From Candidatus Hodarchaeota archaeon (GTDB taxonomy: Archaea > Asgardarchaeota > Heimdallarchaeia > Hodarchaeales > Hodarchaeaceae): 18,427 bases of DNA. The position numbers were made by a program, and so were the translations under genes. Positions 3,953 to 13,390 of this stretch are shown piece after piece (the stretch's first letter is position 1; every line of letters begins with the position of its first letter). The notes under the pieces were generated by a model, which was not told where the DNA came from, did no database searches, and saw nothing but the letters and a program-made list of their open reading frames with translations. The stretch lies in NCBI GenBank assembly GCA_016839815.1, contig JAEOTM010000151.1:1-18427 (forward strand), written 5' to 3'.

Positions 3953-4960
3953 TCACAGGTACTTGATTCTAGGATCCAATATACCGTAAAGTAAATCCGC
4001 TAGGATATTTGCTATGATTACCGTTATTGAAATCAACCAGAATAAGGCCTGTGATACAGGCCAATCATTTTCAATGAGTGAAGTGAATAGAAGTCGTCCC
4101 ATACCATACCAAGCAAAGACAGTCTCTGTTAATATTGCTCCACTTACTATGTATGCAAAGCTAATCGCAATAACAGTAATGAGGGGTAAGAAAGCATTGC
4201 GTACTGCATGCTTATAGAGTACTGTACGCTCCTGTAGACCCTTTGCTTTCGCAGTGAGAATATAATCTTCATTGAGAACATCCACTAAAGTATTACGCAT
4301 GAGAAGCATATAGCCTCCAAAGAATGCCAGAGTTAGTGTAACTACAGGTAAGGTTAGGTGCCAAATAAGATCCCACAATTGTTCAAGTGAAGTCATATTC
4401 CGCCAAACATCAGGAGAACTCTTTGTATGGCCGAGTGGAAAGATAGGAAAAATGTAAGCGAAGACCATGAGTAGCATCATTCCTAACCAAAACACAGGGA
4501 AACTGTACAACGAAAGACCTACGGTAATTAATCCAGTATCAAGTTTACCTCCATGACGACTAGCTGCCCAAATGCCAGCTACTACTCCCACAATAATCGC
4601 TAAAATTGTTGAAGTTCCCATTAATAAGAGAGTATTTGGAAGACGTTCGGTAATCTCATCAGTGACTGGACCAAATGAAGTGAAACTTCGTCCGAAATTA
4701 AGAGTCAGCATATTCTGCATATACTTGATAAAATGATCAAACCACGGCCAAAATCCAGCACCTCGTTCAGGTATTCCATAGATGACTCGTAATCTCTCTA
4801 TCACTTCAGCATCCATTTGAGGATCTGTATATAGCGTCATTGGATCTCTTCCAAGCATAAAAATTGGTAGCCGGAAAATGAAAAAATTGAACACTAAGAC
4901 CGCAAGAAACAAAAACACCGCAATAGTAACTCGTTTTAGTAAGTAACTTCGTAAGCTCAT
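3953..4960 (-). CDS. oppB: Oligopeptide/dipeptide/nickel ABC transporter permease OppB/DppB
   Basis: YLLKR N-terminus, NFGRSF, ERLPNTLLL, EAA motif EDYILTAKAKGL, HAVRNA, ILTETVFAWYGMG, C-terminal LDPRI; RBS AGGAGA at 4970-4965. Confidence 0.95.
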   Translation of the reverse strand: MSLRSYLLKRVTIAVFLFLAVLVFNFFIFRLPIFMLGRDPMTLYTDPQMDAEVIERLRVIYGIPERGAGFWPWFDHFIKYMQNMLTLNFGRSFTSFGPVTDEITERLPNTLLLMGTSTILAIIVGVVAGIWAASRHGGKLDTGLITVGLSLYSFPVFWLGMMLLMVFAYIFPIFPLGHTKSSPDVWRNMTSLEQLWDLIWHLTLPVVTLTLAFFGGYMLLMRNTLVDVLNEDYILTAKAKGLQERTVLYKHAVRNAFLPLITVIAISFAYIVSGAILTETVFAWYGMGRLLFTSLIENDWPVSQALFWLISITVIIANILADLLYGILDPRIKYL

Positions 4961-5031: not shown

Positions 5032-5060
5032 ATCTTTATAAAGATATAGATTGGAGCAAT
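5032..5060 (-). promoter_or_regulatory. oppB promoter module containing a palindromic, possibly bidirectional, TATA box
   Basis: Minus strand 5060-5036 reads ATTGC-TCCAATC-TATATC-TTTATAA; ATCTTTATAAAGAT (5032-5045) is a perfect palindrome between divergent genes. Confidence 0.6.
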
Positions 5061-5082: not shown

Positions 5083-5310
5083 ATGACTGAAGAACATGAA
5101 GGAAGAGCTATTGTCGCGACCCATGCAACATTGAAGTGGTTCATAGTAATTGGTGTAATCCTCGGAGTCATTGGTATTGTAATTTATACAGTTATAACTC
5201 CTTTCATTGGCTCTATTGTAATCTTATTAGGGTTTATCCTAATTGCTCTCTGTACCATCTCATTACTATTTCTGTGGTTAACCGAAAGAATGCTTCCACA
5301 ACCAAAGTAA
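5083..5310 (+). CDS. Small 2-TM hypothetical protein
   Basis: 75 aa, ATG start, two hydrophobic helices, fills the intergenic gap, TATA box about 45 nt upstream. Confidence 0.7.
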   Translation: MTEEHEGRAIVATHATLKWFIVIGVILGVIGIVIYTVITPFIGSIVILLGFILIALCTISLLFLWLTERMLPQPK

Positions 5311-5942: not shown

Positions 5943-6024
5943 CCTATCAAACCCTATTTACTTCTCAATTGAATTTCGACTAGTGATATCATATATCTAG
6001 ATCACACACTTTCTGGTTGTAGTA

Positions 6025-6049
6025 TTAATAAGCTTTTGAATGGTGCAAT
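6025..6049 (-). promoter_or_regulatory. Promoter module of the 171-aa gene
   Basis: Minus strand ATTGC-ACCATTC-AAAAGC-TTATTAA; 18/25 identical to the module at 10716. Confidence 0.6.
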
Positions 6050-6064
6050 AATCGTCAATTCTTC

Positions 6065-6155
6065 TTTGTCACAATCTATAGATTAATAAGTGGGCTTTAG
6101 ACAACGCTACAGACTGATAATATCGATATTATTGGAAAATCCTACAACTTTAAAA
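6065..6155 (+). promoter_or_regulatory. Two promoter modules and a 16-bp palindrome upstream of oppC
   Basis: TTTGT-CACAATC-TATAGA-TTAATAA (6065-6089) and ATTGG-AAAATCC-TACAAC-TTTAAAA (6131-6155); palindrome ATAATATCGATATTAT (6117-6132). The proximal TATA starts 29 nt before the GTG, consistent with a near-leaderless mRNA. Confidence 0.55.
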
Positions 6156-6177: not shown

Positions 6178-7686
6178 GTGTTTGTTTTGAAAAAACGGAA
6201 AATTGCTCATCGTAGAAGTCGAAAAGATCAGTTTGTGGTGACATGGAAGAGATTTTATGAGGTTAAGCATGGCGTTGTTGGAATTATCATCGTAACCATC
6301 TTTATTGCAATGGCGTTAAGTGCACCAACATTATTTCCCCGCTATCCAGGAGAATTAGCTCGTGTAGGTCCAAACTATGCTGCACCTTCTTGGACTCGCT
6401 TTACAGACCCTAACGCGCCACCATTAAAGAATTATCTACCAGATACGGAATTTAAAGACGAAACAGCGTGGAATATGAGTGTTACAAATTATTATACTGG
6501 ATTTCCAGATGATCATGGATCATTTTCTTATGATACTACGGATTTCACTGCTGGTAACCAATCATTGAAGCTTACACTTACAGACAACAGTGAATCAGCC
6601 TATTATCCCACTAATGTCAAAGCAGTCACCTCTTTCCATTATGATTACTCAACTCCGACTTGGGTAACTGTAAATTATGATATGAAATCCAATCTAACTG
6701 GTGATCTGAATCCGAATTCAGTTGTTCCTTATATTCGATTGACAATGCCACCTGAAGCTATTGAGGATTTAGGTCCATATGCAGAGACTTTATCACGGAT
6801 TGATACTAGGCCACGATATCCTACTGAATGGACATCCTATTCTCGAAATATTACTTTCCTCGCCTATTATTATATTTTTCAACCTAACTCAACTGTTACC
6901 TTTGAGTTTGGATTAGAATACTCAAGAACGAGTGTAAATGCATCTGAAACTGGGAATGCAGAATTTTGGTTTGATAACGTTGAAATTATCTGTTTCCCCT
7001 CCTTTTGGGGTCCTCTTGGGACTACCGATAAAGGTCAAGACGTTATGGCCCAATTATTTTGGGGATGCCAAGTTTCACTCTATGTAGGTATCATCGCGAC
7101 CGTTATTGGTGTTGTAGTAGGCCTTATTGTGGGATTAGTAGCTGGCTATTTCTCTGGCATTATAGATGAGCTTCTTATGCGAATAGTCGACTTTTTCTTA
7201 ATAATACCCACATTACCTATCATGATGGTTCTCGCAGCTGTCCTGAGTCCGAGTTTAGAAGTGACTACAATGATTATTGCAATTTTTGCTTGGCCTGGAC
7301 CATCTCGAGTAATTCGGTCACAAGTATTGGTGGAAAAAGAAAAGGCGTATGTTGAAGCAGCTAAAGCCGCTGGTGCAGGTGATGTATACGTTATTTTCAA
7401 GCACGTTTTCCCGAACGTACTCACCTTAGTATTTGTTCAACTAGCAACTGGTGTTTCAGGAGCCATTCTTGCAGAATCAGGTTTGAGTTTCTTAGGATTA
7501 ACACCGCAGAATCTAGTATCCTGGGGACATATGCTTCAGGCAAGTTATGCAACGGGTGCTTTGTTAAACGGAGCTTGGTGGTTTGTTATCCCCCCAGGGC
7601 TAATGATCGTGTTGCTATCAATGGGATTTGTATTTATTGGCTATGCTGTTGATATTGCAATGAATCCACGACAACGAAAACTATAA
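6178..7686 (+). CDS. oppC: Oligopeptide/dipeptide ABC transporter permease OppC/DppC with a large inserted extracellular domain
   Basis: PLGTTDKGQDV, SLYVG, LMRIVDFFLIIP, EAA motif YVEAAKAAGA, HVFPN, ESGLSFLGL, SWGHML, WWFVIPPG, NPR; about 190-aa insertion after TM1. Confidence 0.95.
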   Translation: MFVLKKRKIAHRRSRKDQFVVTWKRFYEVKHGVVGIIIVTIFIAMALSAPTLFPRYPGELARVGPNYAAPSWTRFTDPNAPPLKNYLPDTEFKDETAWNMSVTNYYTGFPDDHGSFSYDTTDFTAGNQSLKLTLTDNSESAYYPTNVKAVTSFHYDYSTPTWVTVNYDMKSNLTGDLNPNSVVPYIRLTMPPEAIEDLGPYAETLSRIDTRPRYPTEWTSYSRNITFLAYYYIFQPNSTVTFEFGLEYSRTSVNASETGNAEFWFDNVEIICFPSFWGPLGTTDKGQDVMAQLFWGCQVSLYVGIIATVIGVVVGLIVGLVAGYFSGIIDELLMRIVDFFLIIPTLPIMMVLAAVLSPSLEVTTMIIAIFAWPGPSRVIRSQVLVEKEKAYVEAAKAAGAGDVYVIFKHVFPNVLTLVFVQLATGVSGAILAESGLSFLGLTPQNLVSWGHMLQASYATGALLNGAWWFVIPPGLMIVLLSMGFVFIGYAVDIAMNPRQRKL

Positions 7687-7711: not shown

Positions 7712-8713
7712 ATGTCTCTTCAAGTAAAGGATCTTAAAATTTACTATTGCATGAAACGTGGAGATTGTAAAGCAGTCGAGGATATATCTTTCAATATCGA
7801 AAAAGGAGAATCCGTAGGATTGGTTGGGGAATCTGGATGTGGAAAGAGTACTGTAGCTTATAGTATATTACGAATGCTACCTTTTCCTGGACAAATTGTT
7901 GATGGAAAAATATGTCTTGATGAAGAAGATCTAAGCTCTTTAACAGAAGAAGAAATGCGGAAATATAGATGGGCTAAAATAGCTATGGTATTTCAAGGAG
8001 CAATGAATGCACTTAATCCGATAATCCGGGTCAAAGAACAAATAACAGAAGCTATTCGACAGCATGAACCTAATGTCTCAAAAAAAGAAGCTTTAGAGAG
8101 AGCTCGTGAATTATTTAAATTAGTAGGGATGGATCCAAATCGAATAAACAATTATCCTTTCGAATTCAGTGGGGGGATGAAACAACGTGCGATGATTGTT
8201 ATGGCGTTGGCATGTAATCCCAAATTTCTAATTGCGGATGAACCAACCACGGCTCTAGATGTCACAGTTCAAGCTCAAATCATGGAGCTTCTTCGAAAAC
8301 TTGTTGAAGACCTTGGAATCACCCTAATGCTGATAACTCACGACCTTTCTGTAGTAGCTGAAACATGTAAGAGGGTAATCATTATGTACGCTGGTAAAAT
8401 AGTGGAGTCTGGATCGGTGCTTGAAATTTTTGCTCAACCTCTACATCCATACTCCCAAGGTTTAATAGCTTCAATCCCCTCGATTGAAAAATCACGAGAT
8501 CAAGCATTAGCCTCAATTCCAGGACAGCCACCTAATCTTCTTGAACCTCCAACAGGATGTCGTTTCCATCCACGATGTCAATATAGTCAAGAAATTTGTA
8601 GTACTGAAGATCCACCCGTAGAAGAAATAGAACCAGATCATTATGTAGCATGCCACCTCTCATCAGGGCGTATTGTATCAGAAAAGTATAATCGTGTCAT
8701 TCGGAATGAGTAA
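7712..8713 (+). CDS. oppD: Oligopeptide/dipeptide ABC transporter ATP-binding protein OppD/DppD
   Basis: Walker A GESGCGKS, FSGGMKQR, ADEPTTALDVTVQAQI, H-loop ITHD, C-terminal HPY and GCRFHPRC; RBS GGTGA upstream. Confidence 0.97.
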   Translation: MSLQVKDLKIYYCMKRGDCKAVEDISFNIEKGESVGLVGESGCGKSTVAYSILRMLPFPGQIVDGKICLDEEDLSSLTEEEMRKYRWAKIAMVFQGAMNALNPIIRVKEQITEAIRQHEPNVSKKEALERARELFKLVGMDPNRINNYPFEFSGGMKQRAMIVMALACNPKFLIADEPTTALDVTVQAQIMELLRKLVEDLGITLMLITHDLSVVAETCKRVIIMYAGKIVESGSVLEIFAQPLHPYSQGLIASIPSIEKSRDQALASIPGQPPNLLEPPTGCRFHPRCQYSQEICSTEDPPVEEIEPDHYVACHLSSGRIVSEKYNRVIRNE

Positions 8714-8715
8714 AA

Positions 8716-9768
8716 ATGATTAGTAATGAAGAACCTTTAGTATCTTGTCGTGGATTACGGAAATGGTTTCCAGTCCGAAACGATTTCTTTTCACAATTAA
8801 GAGGAAAAGAAATATGGTTGAAAGCTGTCGATAATATAGACCTTGATATATTTCAAAATGATATGTATTGTTTAGCTGGAGAATCTGGATGTGGAAAAAC
8901 CACAATAGGTAAATTACTAATAGGTTTACTAGAACCAACTGAAGGAACCGTAATTATTGAAGGAAATGACCTTACTACCTTAAATCGTAGGGAATTTAGA
9001 AAACTAAGAGCAAAGATTCAAACAATATTTCAAGATCCTTACTCATCATTAAATCCACGATTGAGTCTTTACGATACAGTATCAGAACCGTTACGATTAA
9101 ATAAATTGGTTTCATCAAAAGATGAAGAGGAGGAGCGTGTTGTAAAAGCGTTTGAAGCTGTTCAACTTGCTCCAGCAGAAGAATTCACTTTTCGATATCC
9201 ACATGAGCTCAGTGGAGGCCAGCGTCAAAGAGTCGCAATTGCACGAGCAATTGTTGTAAATCCAAAATTTATTGTTGCAGATGAACCAGTCTCAATGCTT
9301 GATGTGTCTATCAGATCTGAAATCTTAAATCTCCTTCAAAATATACGTCAGGAATTTGGGATTGCTTATATATACGTTACACACGATTTATCAGTGGCTA
9401 GTTATATTGGAGATAAGATAGCAATTATGTACCTCGGAAAAGTTATGGAGCGAGGTTCGATTAAACAAGTCATACATGGGGCAGTACATCCCTACTCACG
9501 AGCATTAATCTCAGCTGTGCCATCTCCAAACCCCACAAGTATGCGAAAAAGAGAGATCCTTCCTGGAGAACCAGGAAATCCTATTAATCCTCCTCCAGGG
9601 TGTCTTTTCTCTCCGAGATGTAAATACGCAAAACAAAAGTGTTTCTCCGAGGAACCACCATTAGCGGAAGTAGAACTTGGGCATTTTTCATCATGCTGGT
9701 TCCCTCAAGAACCACTTCAGCTTGACTTTGATCCTAGTGAAACACTTGTGCAAACCTCTCAAAATTAA
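8716..9768 (+). CDS. oppF: Oligopeptide/dipeptide ABC transporter ATP-binding protein OppF/DppF
   Basis: GESGCGKT, FQDPYSSLNPR, YPHELSGGQRQR, ADEPVSMLDVSIR, HPY, GCLFSPRC. Confidence 0.97.
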   Translation: MISNEEPLVSCRGLRKWFPVRNDFFSQLRGKEIWLKAVDNIDLDIFQNDMYCLAGESGCGKTTIGKLLIGLLEPTEGTVIIEGNDLTTLNRREFRKLRAKIQTIFQDPYSSLNPRLSLYDTVSEPLRLNKLVSSKDEEEERVVKAFEAVQLAPAEEFTFRYPHELSGGQRQRVAIARAIVVNPKFIVADEPVSMLDVSIRSEILNLLQNIRQEFGIAYIYVTHDLSVASYIGDKIAIMYLGKVMERGSIKQVIHGAVHPYSRALISAVPSPNPTSMRKREILPGEPGNPINPPPGCLFSPRCKYAKQKCFSEEPPLAEVELGHFSSCWFPQEPLQLDFDPSETLVQTSQN

Positions 9769-9817: not shown

Positions 9818-10213
9818 ATGATTCAAGAAATTATATTAGAGGAATTAGAATGCATCAATCAACTCCTCGACTTGTGTTTATACCGAATGAAAGATATTTT
9901 AGGTTCTAAGCCCAGAGATTTTCTTTGGCGAATGTTCTTTCCAGCAGGACAATTCATGCAACGAAAGTCAATTGCACGTAAAACTTCATATGAATTACTG
10001 AAACTTGATACAAGACTAAGAGAAATGGAACAGGTTTTAGAAGAGCGAGAACATCCAGTAAAACCGCAGATAAGTAAAATTCTTGACACAGATTTAGTAA
10101 TGATGTCTAGTAGGCTTGTGGATTTACCTGAACGAGCACAGTACATGATTTCACAAATTGAAAATATCAAATTTACTATTGAAAACGTTATTCGTGATTC
10201 TAAATTAAATTAA
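9818..10213 (+). CDS. Hypothetical soluble, probably helical protein
   Basis: 131 aa, ATG start, same strand 49 nt after oppF, amphipathic-helix composition; no recognisable motif. Confidence 0.7.
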   Translation: MIQEIILEELECINQLLDLCLYRMKDILGSKPRDFLWRMFFPAGQFMQRKSIARKTSYELLKLDTRLREMEQVLEEREHPVKPQISKILDTDLVMMSSRLVDLPERAQYMISQIENIKFTIENVIRDSKLN

Positions 10214-10277
10214 TTCACTTATGTATTCACAGAAATAAGCAGTAGAAAAATTTAGACAAATTTAAAGGAAGGATTGA

Positions 10278-10619
10278 ATCATTTCATCATCCAAAGAATA
10301 CAAAGTTGTTTATCGACGATGGGTATTAGTAATACCCTGTCTTCTGATTTTACTTGGGTTAATAATTCTAACATTCCAAGATACTGCTGATTCAGGTTTA
10401 ACAATTCTTTCTTACTTATTAATTCTTATAGGAATACTAACTCTTGGACCTCTTCTTGTAGGAATATTGGCAATATCTCTTTCTGCAAAAACAATAGCAA
10501 AATCTAGTCAAACTCAACCTTCGTTCCGCGAGCGAGTTGAAACATCAGAAAAATTAGTAGAAAACGCTACAATTAACGAAAAAGGGAGTACAGTTAATTC
10601 TCGAAAAAGTTTTGACTGA
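10278..10619 (+). CDS. Probable 2-TM protein with no canonical start codon (not in the ORF track)
   Basis: 113 open codons: IISSSKEYKVVYRRWVLVIPCLLILLGLIILTFQDTADSGLTILSYLLILIGILTLGPLLVGILAISLSAKTIAKSSQTQPSFRERVETSEKLVENATINEKGSTVNSRKSFD*. SD-like AGGAAGG at 10266-10272, ATC/ATT at 10278/10281, T-rich tract after the stop. Confidence 0.55.
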   Translation: MISSSKEYKVVYRRWVLVIPCLLILLGLIILTFQDTADSGLTILSYLLILIGILTLGPLLVGILAISLSAKTIAKSSQTQPSFRERVETSEKLVENATINEKGSTVNSRKSFD

Positions 10620-10715
10620 GTAAGTTCACAAGTTTTTCTTTCTTATCTAGGACTTATTTATTGTTTGAAGATCTTAAAATCATTCCATACAAGAATGATT
10701 TATTTTCATCTAATT

Positions 10716-10980
10716 ATTGCCACATTCAAATACTTTAAAAATAAATTTCATATATCATAAGCTTTAAATAGGGGAGTGGTATCCCTCCGTTTCTTTACTA
10801 GAAGTATTGCATCATTCACATTGTTTAAAAGCAAATTTCACTTATGGAAGGGTTTAAATATAAAAACTATAAAAGTGAGATTTTCACCTTTCCTAATTGC
10901 CACATTCCATTGATTTAAAAAGGCAAAAGAAGGTTTGTTTTTTTTTCTGGTAATTTCTTCACATATCAATGACTTTAAAA
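10716..10980 (+). repeat. Degenerate 90-bp-period repeat made of six TATA-containing 25-bp modules upstream of oppA
   Basis: ATTGC..CATTC......TTTAAAA at exactly 10716, 10806 and 10896; variant modules (TTCA...TTTAAA) at 10745, 10835 and 10956. Confidence 0.8.
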
Positions 10981-11004
10981 GGGTCTTACTATTGTTTCCA
11001 GTTC

Positions 11005-11086
11005 ATAGCATTGAATAAGAATTATGCTATCGATCCTATGTTATTTTCGAGGATCTTCCAAAAGATGGATAATAACCAAAAATTGG
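11005..11086 (+). promoter_or_regulatory. Putative structured 5' leader of oppA (four consecutive hairpins)
   Basis: ATAGCAT/ATGCTAT (11005-11030), GATCCT/AGGATC (11032-11055), TCCA/TGGA (11057-11069), CCAA/TTGG (11076-11086). Confidence 0.4.
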
Positions 11087-13012
11087 ATGAATGAAAAAAT
11101 GGGAAAAATAAAAATATTAACCCTAGGCACTGCATTGGCTGTGATGGCACTTGTGTGCTTCAGTACTGCTGTTGCCACACCAATGAGCTCTGCATCAGCT
11201 TTAATATGGACATCAGACTTCACTCCTCACGGAGCATACATTGATGAAATGGTATTTACTGTGTTTACAACCTCAGAAATTCCACAAGCAATGTTAGCCA
11301 TACAAGCTGGTGAACAGGATGCATATGATGAACGAGTATTAGCTAGTTACCTACCAAATCTCGTGAATGACCCTGATATTGATGTGAAGTATAGTTTAGG
11401 AAGTTCTTATCGAGTACTAGTATTAAACAGTCAGAAATTTCCGATTAACATTACTGGTTTCCGACGTGCAATGGCATTTGGAATGGACAAGTACAGAGTA
11501 AATACTGAAGCGATCGGTGGTGCTGGTGTACCATTGGACAGTTATGTTCCACTAGTTGCTACCGAATGGACAGTTGAAGATCAACTCACCACACATTTCT
11601 ATGACAAAGATATTGTATCTGCCAATGCTTCTTTGGAAGCCTCCGGATTTAGAGATCTTGATGGTGATGGCTATCGAGAATACGATGCTGATGATAGCGG
11701 TGATTGGTCTGCTGGTGATCTTGATGACGATGATCCCATGATGCAAGTTGAATTATGGCCTACTTTGGAATATGGTCCTGCAATTGCAGCTACATCTGTC
11801 ACTGCAGCAGGAATGCTAGAAATGGGTTTACATGCTACCGTTGTAGAGAAAGACTGGAATACTTTGGTTAATGCTATTGAACAAGGTGACCACTGGGTTG
11901 CCTGTTGGACAGAAAACATTCCTATAGTTAATCCCACTAAAGTATTGTACGATTATTACCGTACAGGGACTCCAGAAAATGTCCTTTATTATCGCTTTAG
12001 TAACGCCTCCATTGATGCTGTTCTTGATCAAATGAGTGCAGCAACCACTCCGGAAGATGTAAAAACTTACGCTCGACAAGCAACGCTGATGCTTGCCTAT
12101 GAACAGCCATTAATTGTCTGTTATAATGATGCAAATATCAATACTTACAGAACGGATAAATTCGAAGGATTCTTTGAATTTTCTGGTCTTGGATATACTA
12201 ATGGAGGAAATCCATATGTTGCTTCAAAAGTTCGTCTAAAAAGCGGTGAATTGGGTGGTGTATTCAAATACATCTTATCAGAAACACTAGATACAACAAG
12301 TTGTATTCTAACCTCAACTGGTTATGAAGATACTGTTATGCAATATGTCTATGAAACTCTCTGGAATATCGATCCAAATACTTGGGATCCAATTCCTGGA
12401 TTGGCATATGATTGGAGTATTGACGACACATCTGCAGGTGTTGGTGAAGCTTGGGTACAAGATGGACAAAAGTTCACATTCAACCTTTATGACAACGTAA
12501 CTTGGCACGATGGGACAGCTTTCACTTCTGAAGATGTAAAGTATTCCTTTGATACAGTTTGGCCCCAATCTCCCCAAAGGACTTCCGAAATGGATGATAT
12601 CTATCGTGTTGAAACACCAGATGCTTATACAGTGGAATTATATGTAAACAAAACAGGGTATTTCGAGTGGGCAGCCACAACTGATGGTGTTTATATCGTC
12701 CCCAAACACATCTGGACAGCTGGAGAAGCAGATTTCACAACCTTTATTCCAAATAACAATCAAATGGTTGGTACTGGTCCTTTCATGTGGAACGAGTATA
12801 CTCCTGGTGAATATATCAGCATGCTTCGCTATGATGATTGGCGCTGGGATATCCGAGAAACAATGGATGATACAACCACAGATGGTACTGGTCCAGATGA
12901 TACCACTACAACAGAAGACGACGATGGTGGCGCTCCAGGATTTGGATTATTCGCTGCTATTGCTGTTATCATCACATCTGGTGCTGTGTTTTCCAGACGA
13001 CGAAGAAAATAG
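11087..13012 (+). CDS. oppA: Family 5 (OppA/DppA-like) ABC substrate-binding protein, circularly permuted, with PGF-type C-terminal anchor
   Basis: Signal peptide begins at M22 (11087) or M26 (11099) of the 11024 ORF; SBP_bac_5 motifs FRRAMAFGMD, FTFNLYDNVTWHDGTAFTSEDVKYSF, VGTGPF; Thr/Asp linker then PGF-TM-RRRRK. Confidence 0.92.
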   Translation: MNEKMGKIKILTLGTALAVMALVCFSTAVATPMSSASALIWTSDFTPHGAYIDEMVFTVFTTSEIPQAMLAIQAGEQDAYDERVLASYLPNLVNDPDIDVKYSLGSSYRVLVLNSQKFPINITGFRRAMAFGMDKYRVNTEAIGGAGVPLDSYVPLVATEWTVEDQLTTHFYDKDIVSANASLEASGFRDLDGDGYREYDADDSGDWSAGDLDDDDPMMQVELWPTLEYGPAIAATSVTAAGMLEMGLHATVVEKDWNTLVNAIEQGDHWVACWTENIPIVNPTKVLYDYYRTGTPENVLYYRFSNASIDAVLDQMSAATTPEDVKTYARQATLMLAYEQPLIVCYNDANINTYRTDKFEGFFEFSGLGYTNGGNPYVASKVRLKSGELGGVFKYILSETLDTTSCILTSTGYEDTVMQYVYETLWNIDPNTWDPIPGLAYDWSIDDTSAGVGEAWVQDGQKFTFNLYDNVTWHDGTAFTSEDVKYSFDTVWPQSPQRTSEMDDIYRVETPDAYTVELYVNKTGYFEWAATTDGVYIVPKHIWTAGEADFTTFIPNNNQMVGTGPFMWNEYTPGEYISMLRYDDWRWDIRETMDDTTTDGTGPDDTTTTEDDDGGAPGFGLFAAIAVIITSGAVFSRRRRK

Positions 13013-13032
13013 GTTTTCAACCTATTTTCCAA

Positions 13033-13051
13033 TTTTTTTTCTTTTTTTTTT
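13033..13051 (+). terminator. Archaeal oligo-T terminator of oppA
   Basis: T8-C-T10 about 20 nt after the stop codon. Confidence 0.75.
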
Positions 13052-13361
13052 AGAACTCAATTCTTTTCACAACCTCTTAACCTCCATCCCCCATTCTTCA
13101 ATCCTCAGTGGATGGAATGATGTCAAAAAAACGTAATCTAATGAGCTGAAACTTGTTTATATGGTCCTTTCAGATAAAGTGTATTACTGTAGAGAGCCTA
13201 TTTGCTACAGAAAACTTGTAGGATTATGCCCTATAAATAACAAAGTAGCATTCTCTAATTTGAGAACACCTTAATCAGGATGTGAACTCCCTTAAATTCA
13301 GTCTATTTACCTATTAATTGAAAATTTAATGAAATTGTCCTGTTGAGTAGAAAAATTCAAA

Positions 13362-13390
13362 GTTTACACATGTGAACATTTTTATAAAAA
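13362..13390 (+). promoter_or_regulatory. feoAB promoter: imperfect inverted repeat abutting a TATA box
   Basis: GTTTACA-CA-TGTGAAC (13362-13377) followed by TTTTTATAAAAA (13379-13390); ATG at 13407. Confidence 0.55.

Follow-up and report, generated by a model that had tools for sequence, protein, structure and literature searches.

A six-copy promoter-like array upstream of an oppA-like gene in a Hodarchaeal genome: anatomy, conservation and possible function

What could six promoter-like modules, set at steps of about 30 bp, be doing in front of a single transporter gene? The question is raised by a contig from the Hodarchaeales, the archaeal order closest to eukaryotes. To our knowledge, transcription regulation in Asgard archaea is almost entirely undescribed, and our literature search found no paper on Asgard promoters. 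The window analysed here is one whole 18.4-kb contig of a metagenome-assembled genome (G000; 4.24 Mb, 36% G+C), and it carries the genes of an opp-type ABC importer in a scattered arrangement: oppB (3953-4960, minus strand), oppC (6178-7686), oppD (7712-8713), oppF (8716-9768) and, on the plus strand, an oppA-like solute-binding protein gene of the SBP_bac_5 family (11099..13012; Pfam PF00496, E 1.3e-40). The start of oppA was placed at 11099 because the upstream frame is closed in the related genome G018. All six modules are housed in the non-coding gap of 479 bases that lies between a small membrane ORF (10278-10619) and the binding-protein gene.

The neighbourhood holds several further features. 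The small membrane ORF is a 113-codon open frame on the plus strand for a two-helix membrane protein, and its DNA is 66% identical to that of G018; ATG, GTG and TTG are all missing before codon 64, and a TTTAAAG box lies near the frame at 10261. A hairpin followed by a T-rich tail (10677..10708, plus strand; fold z-score -2.8) lies 5' of the array and probably terminates the transcript of the upstream small ORF. The oppCDF genes are followed by a 131-aa ORF (9818-10213, plus strand) that is kept in G018 and encodes the sole unexplained cytoplasmic protein among the ORFs of the window. We rejected it as a regulator of the array, given that Pfam, Atlas and PDB sequence searches returned no family match and that its model is a plain, generic four-helix bundle (pLDDT 74); domain searches found no DNA-binding domain in any ORF of the window. 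Downstream, oppA ends in a conserved terminator hairpin (13005-13052, plus strand; AAAATAGG ... CCTATTTT) followed by runs of T8 and T10, a clear instance of the hairpin-plus-T signal in this lineage. About 29 nt 5' of the start of feoA stands a 19-nt island, TGTGAACATTTTTATAAAA (13368-13390, plus strand), without a single change in G018; it is likely to be a leaderless feoA promoter with a candidate iron-regulator operator. Elsewhere in G000, a second OppA-like gene (C135:5635-8119; 49% identical) stands tail-to-tail with a TFB paralog (C135:7571-8119, minus strand).

Each module spans 25 nt and consists of a 14-nt left box (ATTKC-AYMWWTC-AA; sequence ATTGCNNCATTCAA), a variable stretch of 4 nt and TTTAAAW as the T/A box. 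The preliminary description had placed six of them at 10716, 10745, 10806, 10835, 10896 and 10956 (offsets 0, 29, 90, 119, 180 and 240), and we found all six at these positions, where they contain the sole TTTAAA hexamers within 10270-11100. The modules, all on the plus strand and of two types, A and B, were scored with a PWM trained solely on twelve array modules, six from G000 and six from G018. Module A1 (ATTGC-CACATTC-AAATAC-TTTAAAA, 10716..10740) scored 30.0 bits and is identical to its G018 counterpart at 22/25 positions; the corresponding values are 22.7 bits and 18/25 for B1 (ATTTC-ATATATC-ATAAGC-TTTAAAT, 10745..10769), 27.6 bits and 20/25 for A2 (10806..10830), 21.5 bits and 20/25 for B2 (10835..10859), and 26.1 bits and 19/25 for A3 (10896..10920). 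Module B3 (10956..10980; T/A box 10974-10980) is the best conserved, at 23/25. Folds and the alignment further revealed that A3 is flanked by an inverted repeat, TTGCC ... GGCAA, which in G018 reads ATTGCC/GGCAAT. The B modules had been described as sharing one register; they do keep to a 30-bp register, but B3 is displaced from the position that B1 and B2 take in the 90-bp unit, and starts 60 nt after A3, not 29.

How such an array could have arisen is indicated by comparing its parts with one another. Type A modules match each other at 18-21/25 positions, type B modules at 16-18/25 and A with B at 13-16/25 (a likeness of 52-84% across the array modules), and the 36-nt spacers within the array match at 11/36 positions, which is the random level. 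The array was not called by TRF, because its units are only about half identical overall. From these comparisons, the array goes back to an old, not a recent, duplication in which the 90-bp unit comprised A, B and spacer; the random-level spacers, the missing TRF call and an array older than the split between G000 and G018 thus bear out the earlier suggestion that no recent duplication is involved.

We also compared the array with the rest of the genome. The strict pattern ATTGCNNCATTC-N6-TTTAAAA, allowing at most 1 mismatch, has 3 matches in the 4.24-Mb genome, all of them in the array, and the reversed control pattern has no match in the same 4.24 Mb. The hexamer TTTAAA itself is slightly rare (3447 occurrences genome-wide, 0.81 per kb), and its six copies in 270 bp form the densest cluster of the genome, the runner-up holding five. 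Genome-wide, TTTAAA phasing at 30, 60 and 90 bp amounted to small bumps at 60 and 90 bp that are due to unrelated pairs, and a lag scan of the genome for other repeat arrays returned coding repeats and arrays of period 66-69 only. Direct repeats with a period of 66-69 bp at C36:797-1354 and C166:46-317 of G000 resemble CRISPR arrays. The flanks of TTTAWA upstream of ~2000 long ORFs contain no conserved general motif, and the module was therefore rejected as a genome-wide promoter feature. Similarly, no wider regulon was found: over 83 genomes of the class, the strict pattern gave single matches, mostly intragenic, and the other top PWM matches in G000 fall in coding DNA or at ordinary promoters. 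A perfect single type-A module (ATTGCCACATTC-N6-TTTAAAA; L064 at G009:C1:4684276 and L067 at G014:C212:1114, both on the minus strand) is present in each of two further species of the genus, in a conserved intergenic stretch, 176-263 nt 5' of a 94-aa zinc-ribbon-like ORF; these modules have no relation to opp genes.

Among 21 genomes of the genus, G018 alone, whose OppA is 84% identical, matches the intergenic DNA of the array. Six modules are present there, with start-to-start distances identical to those in G000 (29, 61, 29, 61 and 60). Between the two genomes, the modules are identical at 122/150 positions (81%) and the spacers at 50% overall (Fisher p 9e-8). Spacers 1 and 2 are near random, at 39% and 36% identity, respectively, and spacer 3, which holds a T9 tract, is 74% identical. 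Within the modules, conservation is concentrated in two blocks, positions 0-13 (87%) and 18-24 (88%), with 50% identity in the intervening 4 nt. The substitutions found in the T/A boxes stay T/A-rich (TTTAAAA to CTTATAA, TTTTAAT or CTTAAAA), as would be expected of TBP sites rather than of base-specific operators. Further, no indel has occurred in the 265 bp of the array, compared with ~3.2 expected (P about 0.04) from the 25 gap events that we counted in 2040 bp of other intergenic DNA of G000 and G018; this is suggestive of a constraint on spacing but not compelling. As controls, the feoA and MacB-like promoters and the gap at 17.5-17.9 kb each contain one conserved T/A-box island in the same alignment, compared with six in the oppA gap. 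The motif and its spacing were thus conserved at the orthologous locus of one close relative, G018. The array is missing at the next closest OppA locus examined (G005, 67% identity, with different neighbours) and at ~38 paralogous binding-protein loci, so that, among the loci compared, it is found in two genomes only, G000 and G018; by protein, further OppA relatives are P0002 (87% identical) and P0004 (73% identical). Overall, the alignment reveals that the modules are under purifying selection, in a pattern that fits a constraint on geometry. The selection that had been proposed is well borne out for the modules themselves (81% identity versus 36-39% in spacers 1 and 2) and more modestly for their geometry (no indels).

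Single copies of the module also occur at other genes of the opp locus. The PWM found 11 non-array matches of at least 16.9 bits in the genome, 2 of which lie in the 18-kb window, where about 0.04 would be expected; at 19 bits or more there are 9 matches in the genome and 7 in the window, namely the 6 array modules and one before a gene for a 171-aa protein. The latter module (ATTGC-ACCATTC-N6-TTATTAA; 6025..6049, minus strand; 19.1 bits) is identical in G018. The other precedes oppB (ATTGC-TCCAATC-N6-TTTATAA; 5036..5060, minus strand; 16.9 bits), with its T/A box 82 nt before the ATG at 4960, and retains ATTGC and the T/A box in G018. Both single copies are oriented in the sense of the gene and lie 82-89 nt 5' of the starts of oppB and the 171-aa gene. 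The composite ATTGCNNCA[AT]TC plus T/A box occurs 6 times in the genome, 5 times at the opp locus and once as an intragenic chance match. A possible weak module before oppC (TTTGT-CACAATC-N6-TTAATAA; 6065..6089, plus strand) is conserved in G018 but, at 5.2 PWM bits, is not statistically supported, and module copies at oppC and the MacB-like gene were set aside as unsupported (5.2, 10.0 and 2.0 bits). The oppB module sits in a 122-bp gap that separates oppB from a divergent, unannotated-looking 75-aa membrane ORF (5083-5310, plus strand), itself well kept in G018. The leader of the 171-aa gene also contains a palindrome, GTGAT-N13-ATCAC (5985-6008, plus strand), that is largely kept in G018.

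Between A3 and B3 lies a conserved TTTG + T9 tract (10934..10946, plus strand), which resembles a terminator and could act as an insulator. In this genome, sense T-runs of at least 8 nt concentrate at 10-30 nt past the stop codon (54 over two bins of 10 nt, compared with a background of ~2-5 per bin), and the same genome-wide count revealed no enrichment of A-runs. The T9 tract, then, looks like a terminator that should stop transcripts arriving from upstream, and because it lies between five of the six modules and oppA, those five probably deliver no mRNA to the gene. The predicted start of A3 lands within the tract itself, and, since 29 bp separate the T/A box of an A module from that of the B module paired with it, a start driven by A would fall within that B box. 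The earlier view that the array drives or tunes oppA is thus sustained as regards a regulatory role at the opp locus, to which the sense copies at oppB and the 171-aa gene point, but not as regards additive firing, against which the T9 tract argues. The leader 3' of B3 is 72% identical in G018. At the predicted B3 transcript start, a palindrome that is unique in the genome (ATAGCAT-N12-ATGCTAT; 11005..11030, plus strand) has arms that are invariant and a loop that varies in G018; it could be either an operator or a 5' hairpin. Shine-Dalgarno sites are heavily used in this genome (280/1591 long ORFs, with the site at -14 to -10); oppA has none by that pattern and instead has a fully conserved CCAAAAATTGG hairpin directly 5' of its start (11060-11098, plus strand).

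From the anatomy, uniqueness and conservation of the array, the motif shared within the locus and the link between T tracts and gene ends, we infer what binds, which module fires, in which direction the output is moved and whether loading is cooperative. The reading that we prefer, and to which we give an even chance, is that a module combines a box for an opp-specific factor with a weak-BRE TATA promoter, that the last copy is the oppA promoter and that the five distal copies are auxiliary docking sites for the factor or TBP. The asymmetric 14-nt box would be recognised by a transcription factor, or by one of four TFB paralogs, the four free bases would occupy the BRE position and the T/A box would be bound by TBP. 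One such unit would drive oppB and one the 171-aa gene; before the binding-protein gene, the unit would have been multiplied to six, with starts at multiples of ~30 bp. Module B3 (T/A box 10974) would be the mRNA promoter, its transcript beginning at ~11003 at the conserved palindrome and having a leader of ~95 nt. The five distal copies would contribute no mRNA, since the T9 tract would halt their transcripts and insulate the promoter; they would load the factor, perhaps with TBP/TFB, in a cooperative manner along a single face of the DNA, and this loading would raise or sharpen the induction of the subunit that the transporter needs most. Activation is assumed here because the left box lies upstream of the T/A box. 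What counts against docking is the strict conservation of the distal T/A boxes, which a pure factor-docking model does not require. It may also be that TBP does not recognise the T/A boxes, or that B3 is not alone in firing.

By the Sulfolobus BRE rule (A at -3 and A/G at -6; PMC5817253), which is that of another phylum, A is present at -3 in 1/6 and A/G at -6 in 5/6 array modules, and the BRE region genome-wide in G000 has a faint A bias only, at -7 to -4. By analogy, the module may have a weak BRE and so might resemble the activator-dependent weak-BRE promoters of the ARA box, PF1088 and ArnR (PMC5817253). The genome encodes a single TBP, at least 7 histone-fold proteins and the four TFB paralogs, which lie on C135, C6, C22 and C127. 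A bolder reading, which we regard as highly improbable, is that each unit nucleates a factor/TBP/TFB complex and that these complexes stack at 30-/90-bp steps on the gyres of a histone superhelix, as a putative enhancer-like hub feeding one promoter; if true, such a chromatin-embedded hub would be a prokaryotic forerunner of clustered promoter-proximal enhancers. In a milder variant of this bolder reading, the left box may be a putative extended BRE that is read by one TFB paralog and defines a private promoter class.

Other explanations for the array fare less well against the same evidence. Were all six modules to fire as tandem promoters, their summed output would raise transcript of the binding-protein gene far above that of the membrane subunits, which would suit the general finding that ABC importers usually require their binding proteins in excess of the permeases; the array modules also have the architecture of the single oppB and 171-aa gene promoters, and their T/A boxes are conserved in 6/6 cases. 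However, the conserved T9 tract intervenes between modules 1-5 and oppA in a genome where T-runs mark transcript ends, initiation complexes on A and B boxes 29 bp apart would be mutually exclusive, with the A start inside the B box, and the A3 start is predicted inside the tract, so we consider summed firing unlikely. Rather less likely still is a repressive role, in which the whole 25-nt unit, TTTAAA included, is a bipartite operator and an Lrp/AsnC-type octamer, or a chromatin protein or histones, coats ~270 bp and silences oppA until freed by a ligand. The sites do begin at multiples of ~30 bp, the step of both Lrp-type clusters and archaeal histone dimers, the at least 7 histone-fold genes are at hand, and Lrp controls opp in E. 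coli; in addition, the left box of type A is framed by a palindromic shell, TTG-N7-CAA (5/6 pairs in the TTGCATCATTCAA variant), and TTGC-N20-GCAA inverted repeats surround the T/A box in 4/6 A modules. Against this, the boxes are asymmetric and all in one orientation, with the B boxes non-palindromic; the lone gene-sense units before oppB and the 171-aa gene must include a promoter; the T/A boxes degenerate in the manner of a TATA box; and 90 bp corresponds to 8.6 turns at 10.5 bp/turn, so that the sites would be phased only at 10.0 bp/turn.

The history of the array could also be its whole explanation: a 90-bp promoter unit was duplicated twice, the proximal copy works and the rest are decaying. 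The 90-bp unit structure and the similarity of A to B do show an origin by duplication, and the array is confined to two species. But the duplication is older than the split between G000 and G018, long enough ago for spacers 1 and 2 to have drifted to 36-39% identity, and the five distal modules are still 72-88% identical without an indel, whereas decay would have hit modules and spacers equally; we therefore think a mere relic very improbable. Hardly to be credited at all is an RNA or repeat element, whether a set of nested small RNAs ending at the T9 tract or a degenerate array of CRISPR-like repeats or iterons. The constant length of the spacers (35-36 nt), their lack of relation between the species and the position of the T9 tract on the 3' side would suit it, but a search of Rfam at E up to 1 returned nothing, the folds predicted for hypothetical transcripts are no more stable than those of shuffled sequences (z -0.55 to +1.08) and the transcribed parts are the unconserved ones. 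Moreover, the repeats are merely 52-84% alike, the window has no cas-like or Rep-like gene, and the lone sense copies at other opp genes fit a promoter element. Two specific forms were rejected: a CRISPR array, on the grounds that there are three units only with so low a repeat likeness, no cas-like domain in the window and a conserved spacer 3; and a replication origin with iterons, on the grounds that no orc1/cdc6 or Rep gene is nearby and that the gene-sense opp copies favour transcription. A sigma-70 scan gave matches at shuffle level, which is in any case not relevant to an archaeon.

The locus presents a compact, selected cis-element, a 14-nt box with a T/A box, found singly at oppB and at the 171-aa gene and as six phased copies at oppA. 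The left box offers a ready bait for finding a Hodarchaeal transcription factor, and the array is a natural test of how the copy number and spacing of promoter units set expression levels in an archaeon that has histones. Should the distal copies dock factors without initiating, archaea would have an instance of site clustering that resembles enhancers; should they instead fire and have their transcripts end at the T9 tract, the array would exemplify decoy or insulating transcription.

Four known systems invite comparison with the array. In the archaeal histone hypernucleosome, each dimer covers 30 bp and a superhelical turn about 90 bp; these numbers match those of the array, and the genome does encode histone-fold proteins, but the 90-bp period is already explained by duplication of a 90-bp unit. 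The rRNA operon of Halobacterium cutirubrum has tandem promoter repeats, P1-P8. Like the array, such haloarchaeal promoters are units that tandem duplication multiplied ahead of a strongly expressed gene; however, their units each fire and read through, whereas in the array the T/A boxes are paired 29 bp apart and the T9 tract separates five units from oppA. Operator clusters of the Lrp/AsnC family, such as the three Ss-LrpB boxes, FL11 and the sites of E. coli Lrp at ilvIH and opp, share with the array a regular spacing of about three helical turns and a physiological connection with the uptake of peptides or amino acids. The Lrp sites, however, are palindromes of 13-15 bp, whereas those of the array repeat directly, all facing the same way and each coupled to a T/A box; in our palindrome check, the TTG-N7-CAA shell of type A had 3-5/6 symmetric pairs and type B was asymmetric. 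Closest in design are the ARA box of the Sulfolobus araS binding-protein promoter, the PF1088 (TFB-RF1) site, the ArnR box and Ptr2, in which, as in the array, a largely non-palindromic element is fixed shortly 5' of the T/A box (PMC5817253). The likeness to the ARA-box class may extend to a weak BRE, and it includes an element that several transcription units of a single transport locus have in common, the binding-protein gene among them. What sets the present locus apart from that class is that the whole unit, box and T/A box together, is repeated six-fold at multiples of ~30 bp, and that its host is an Asgard archaeon.
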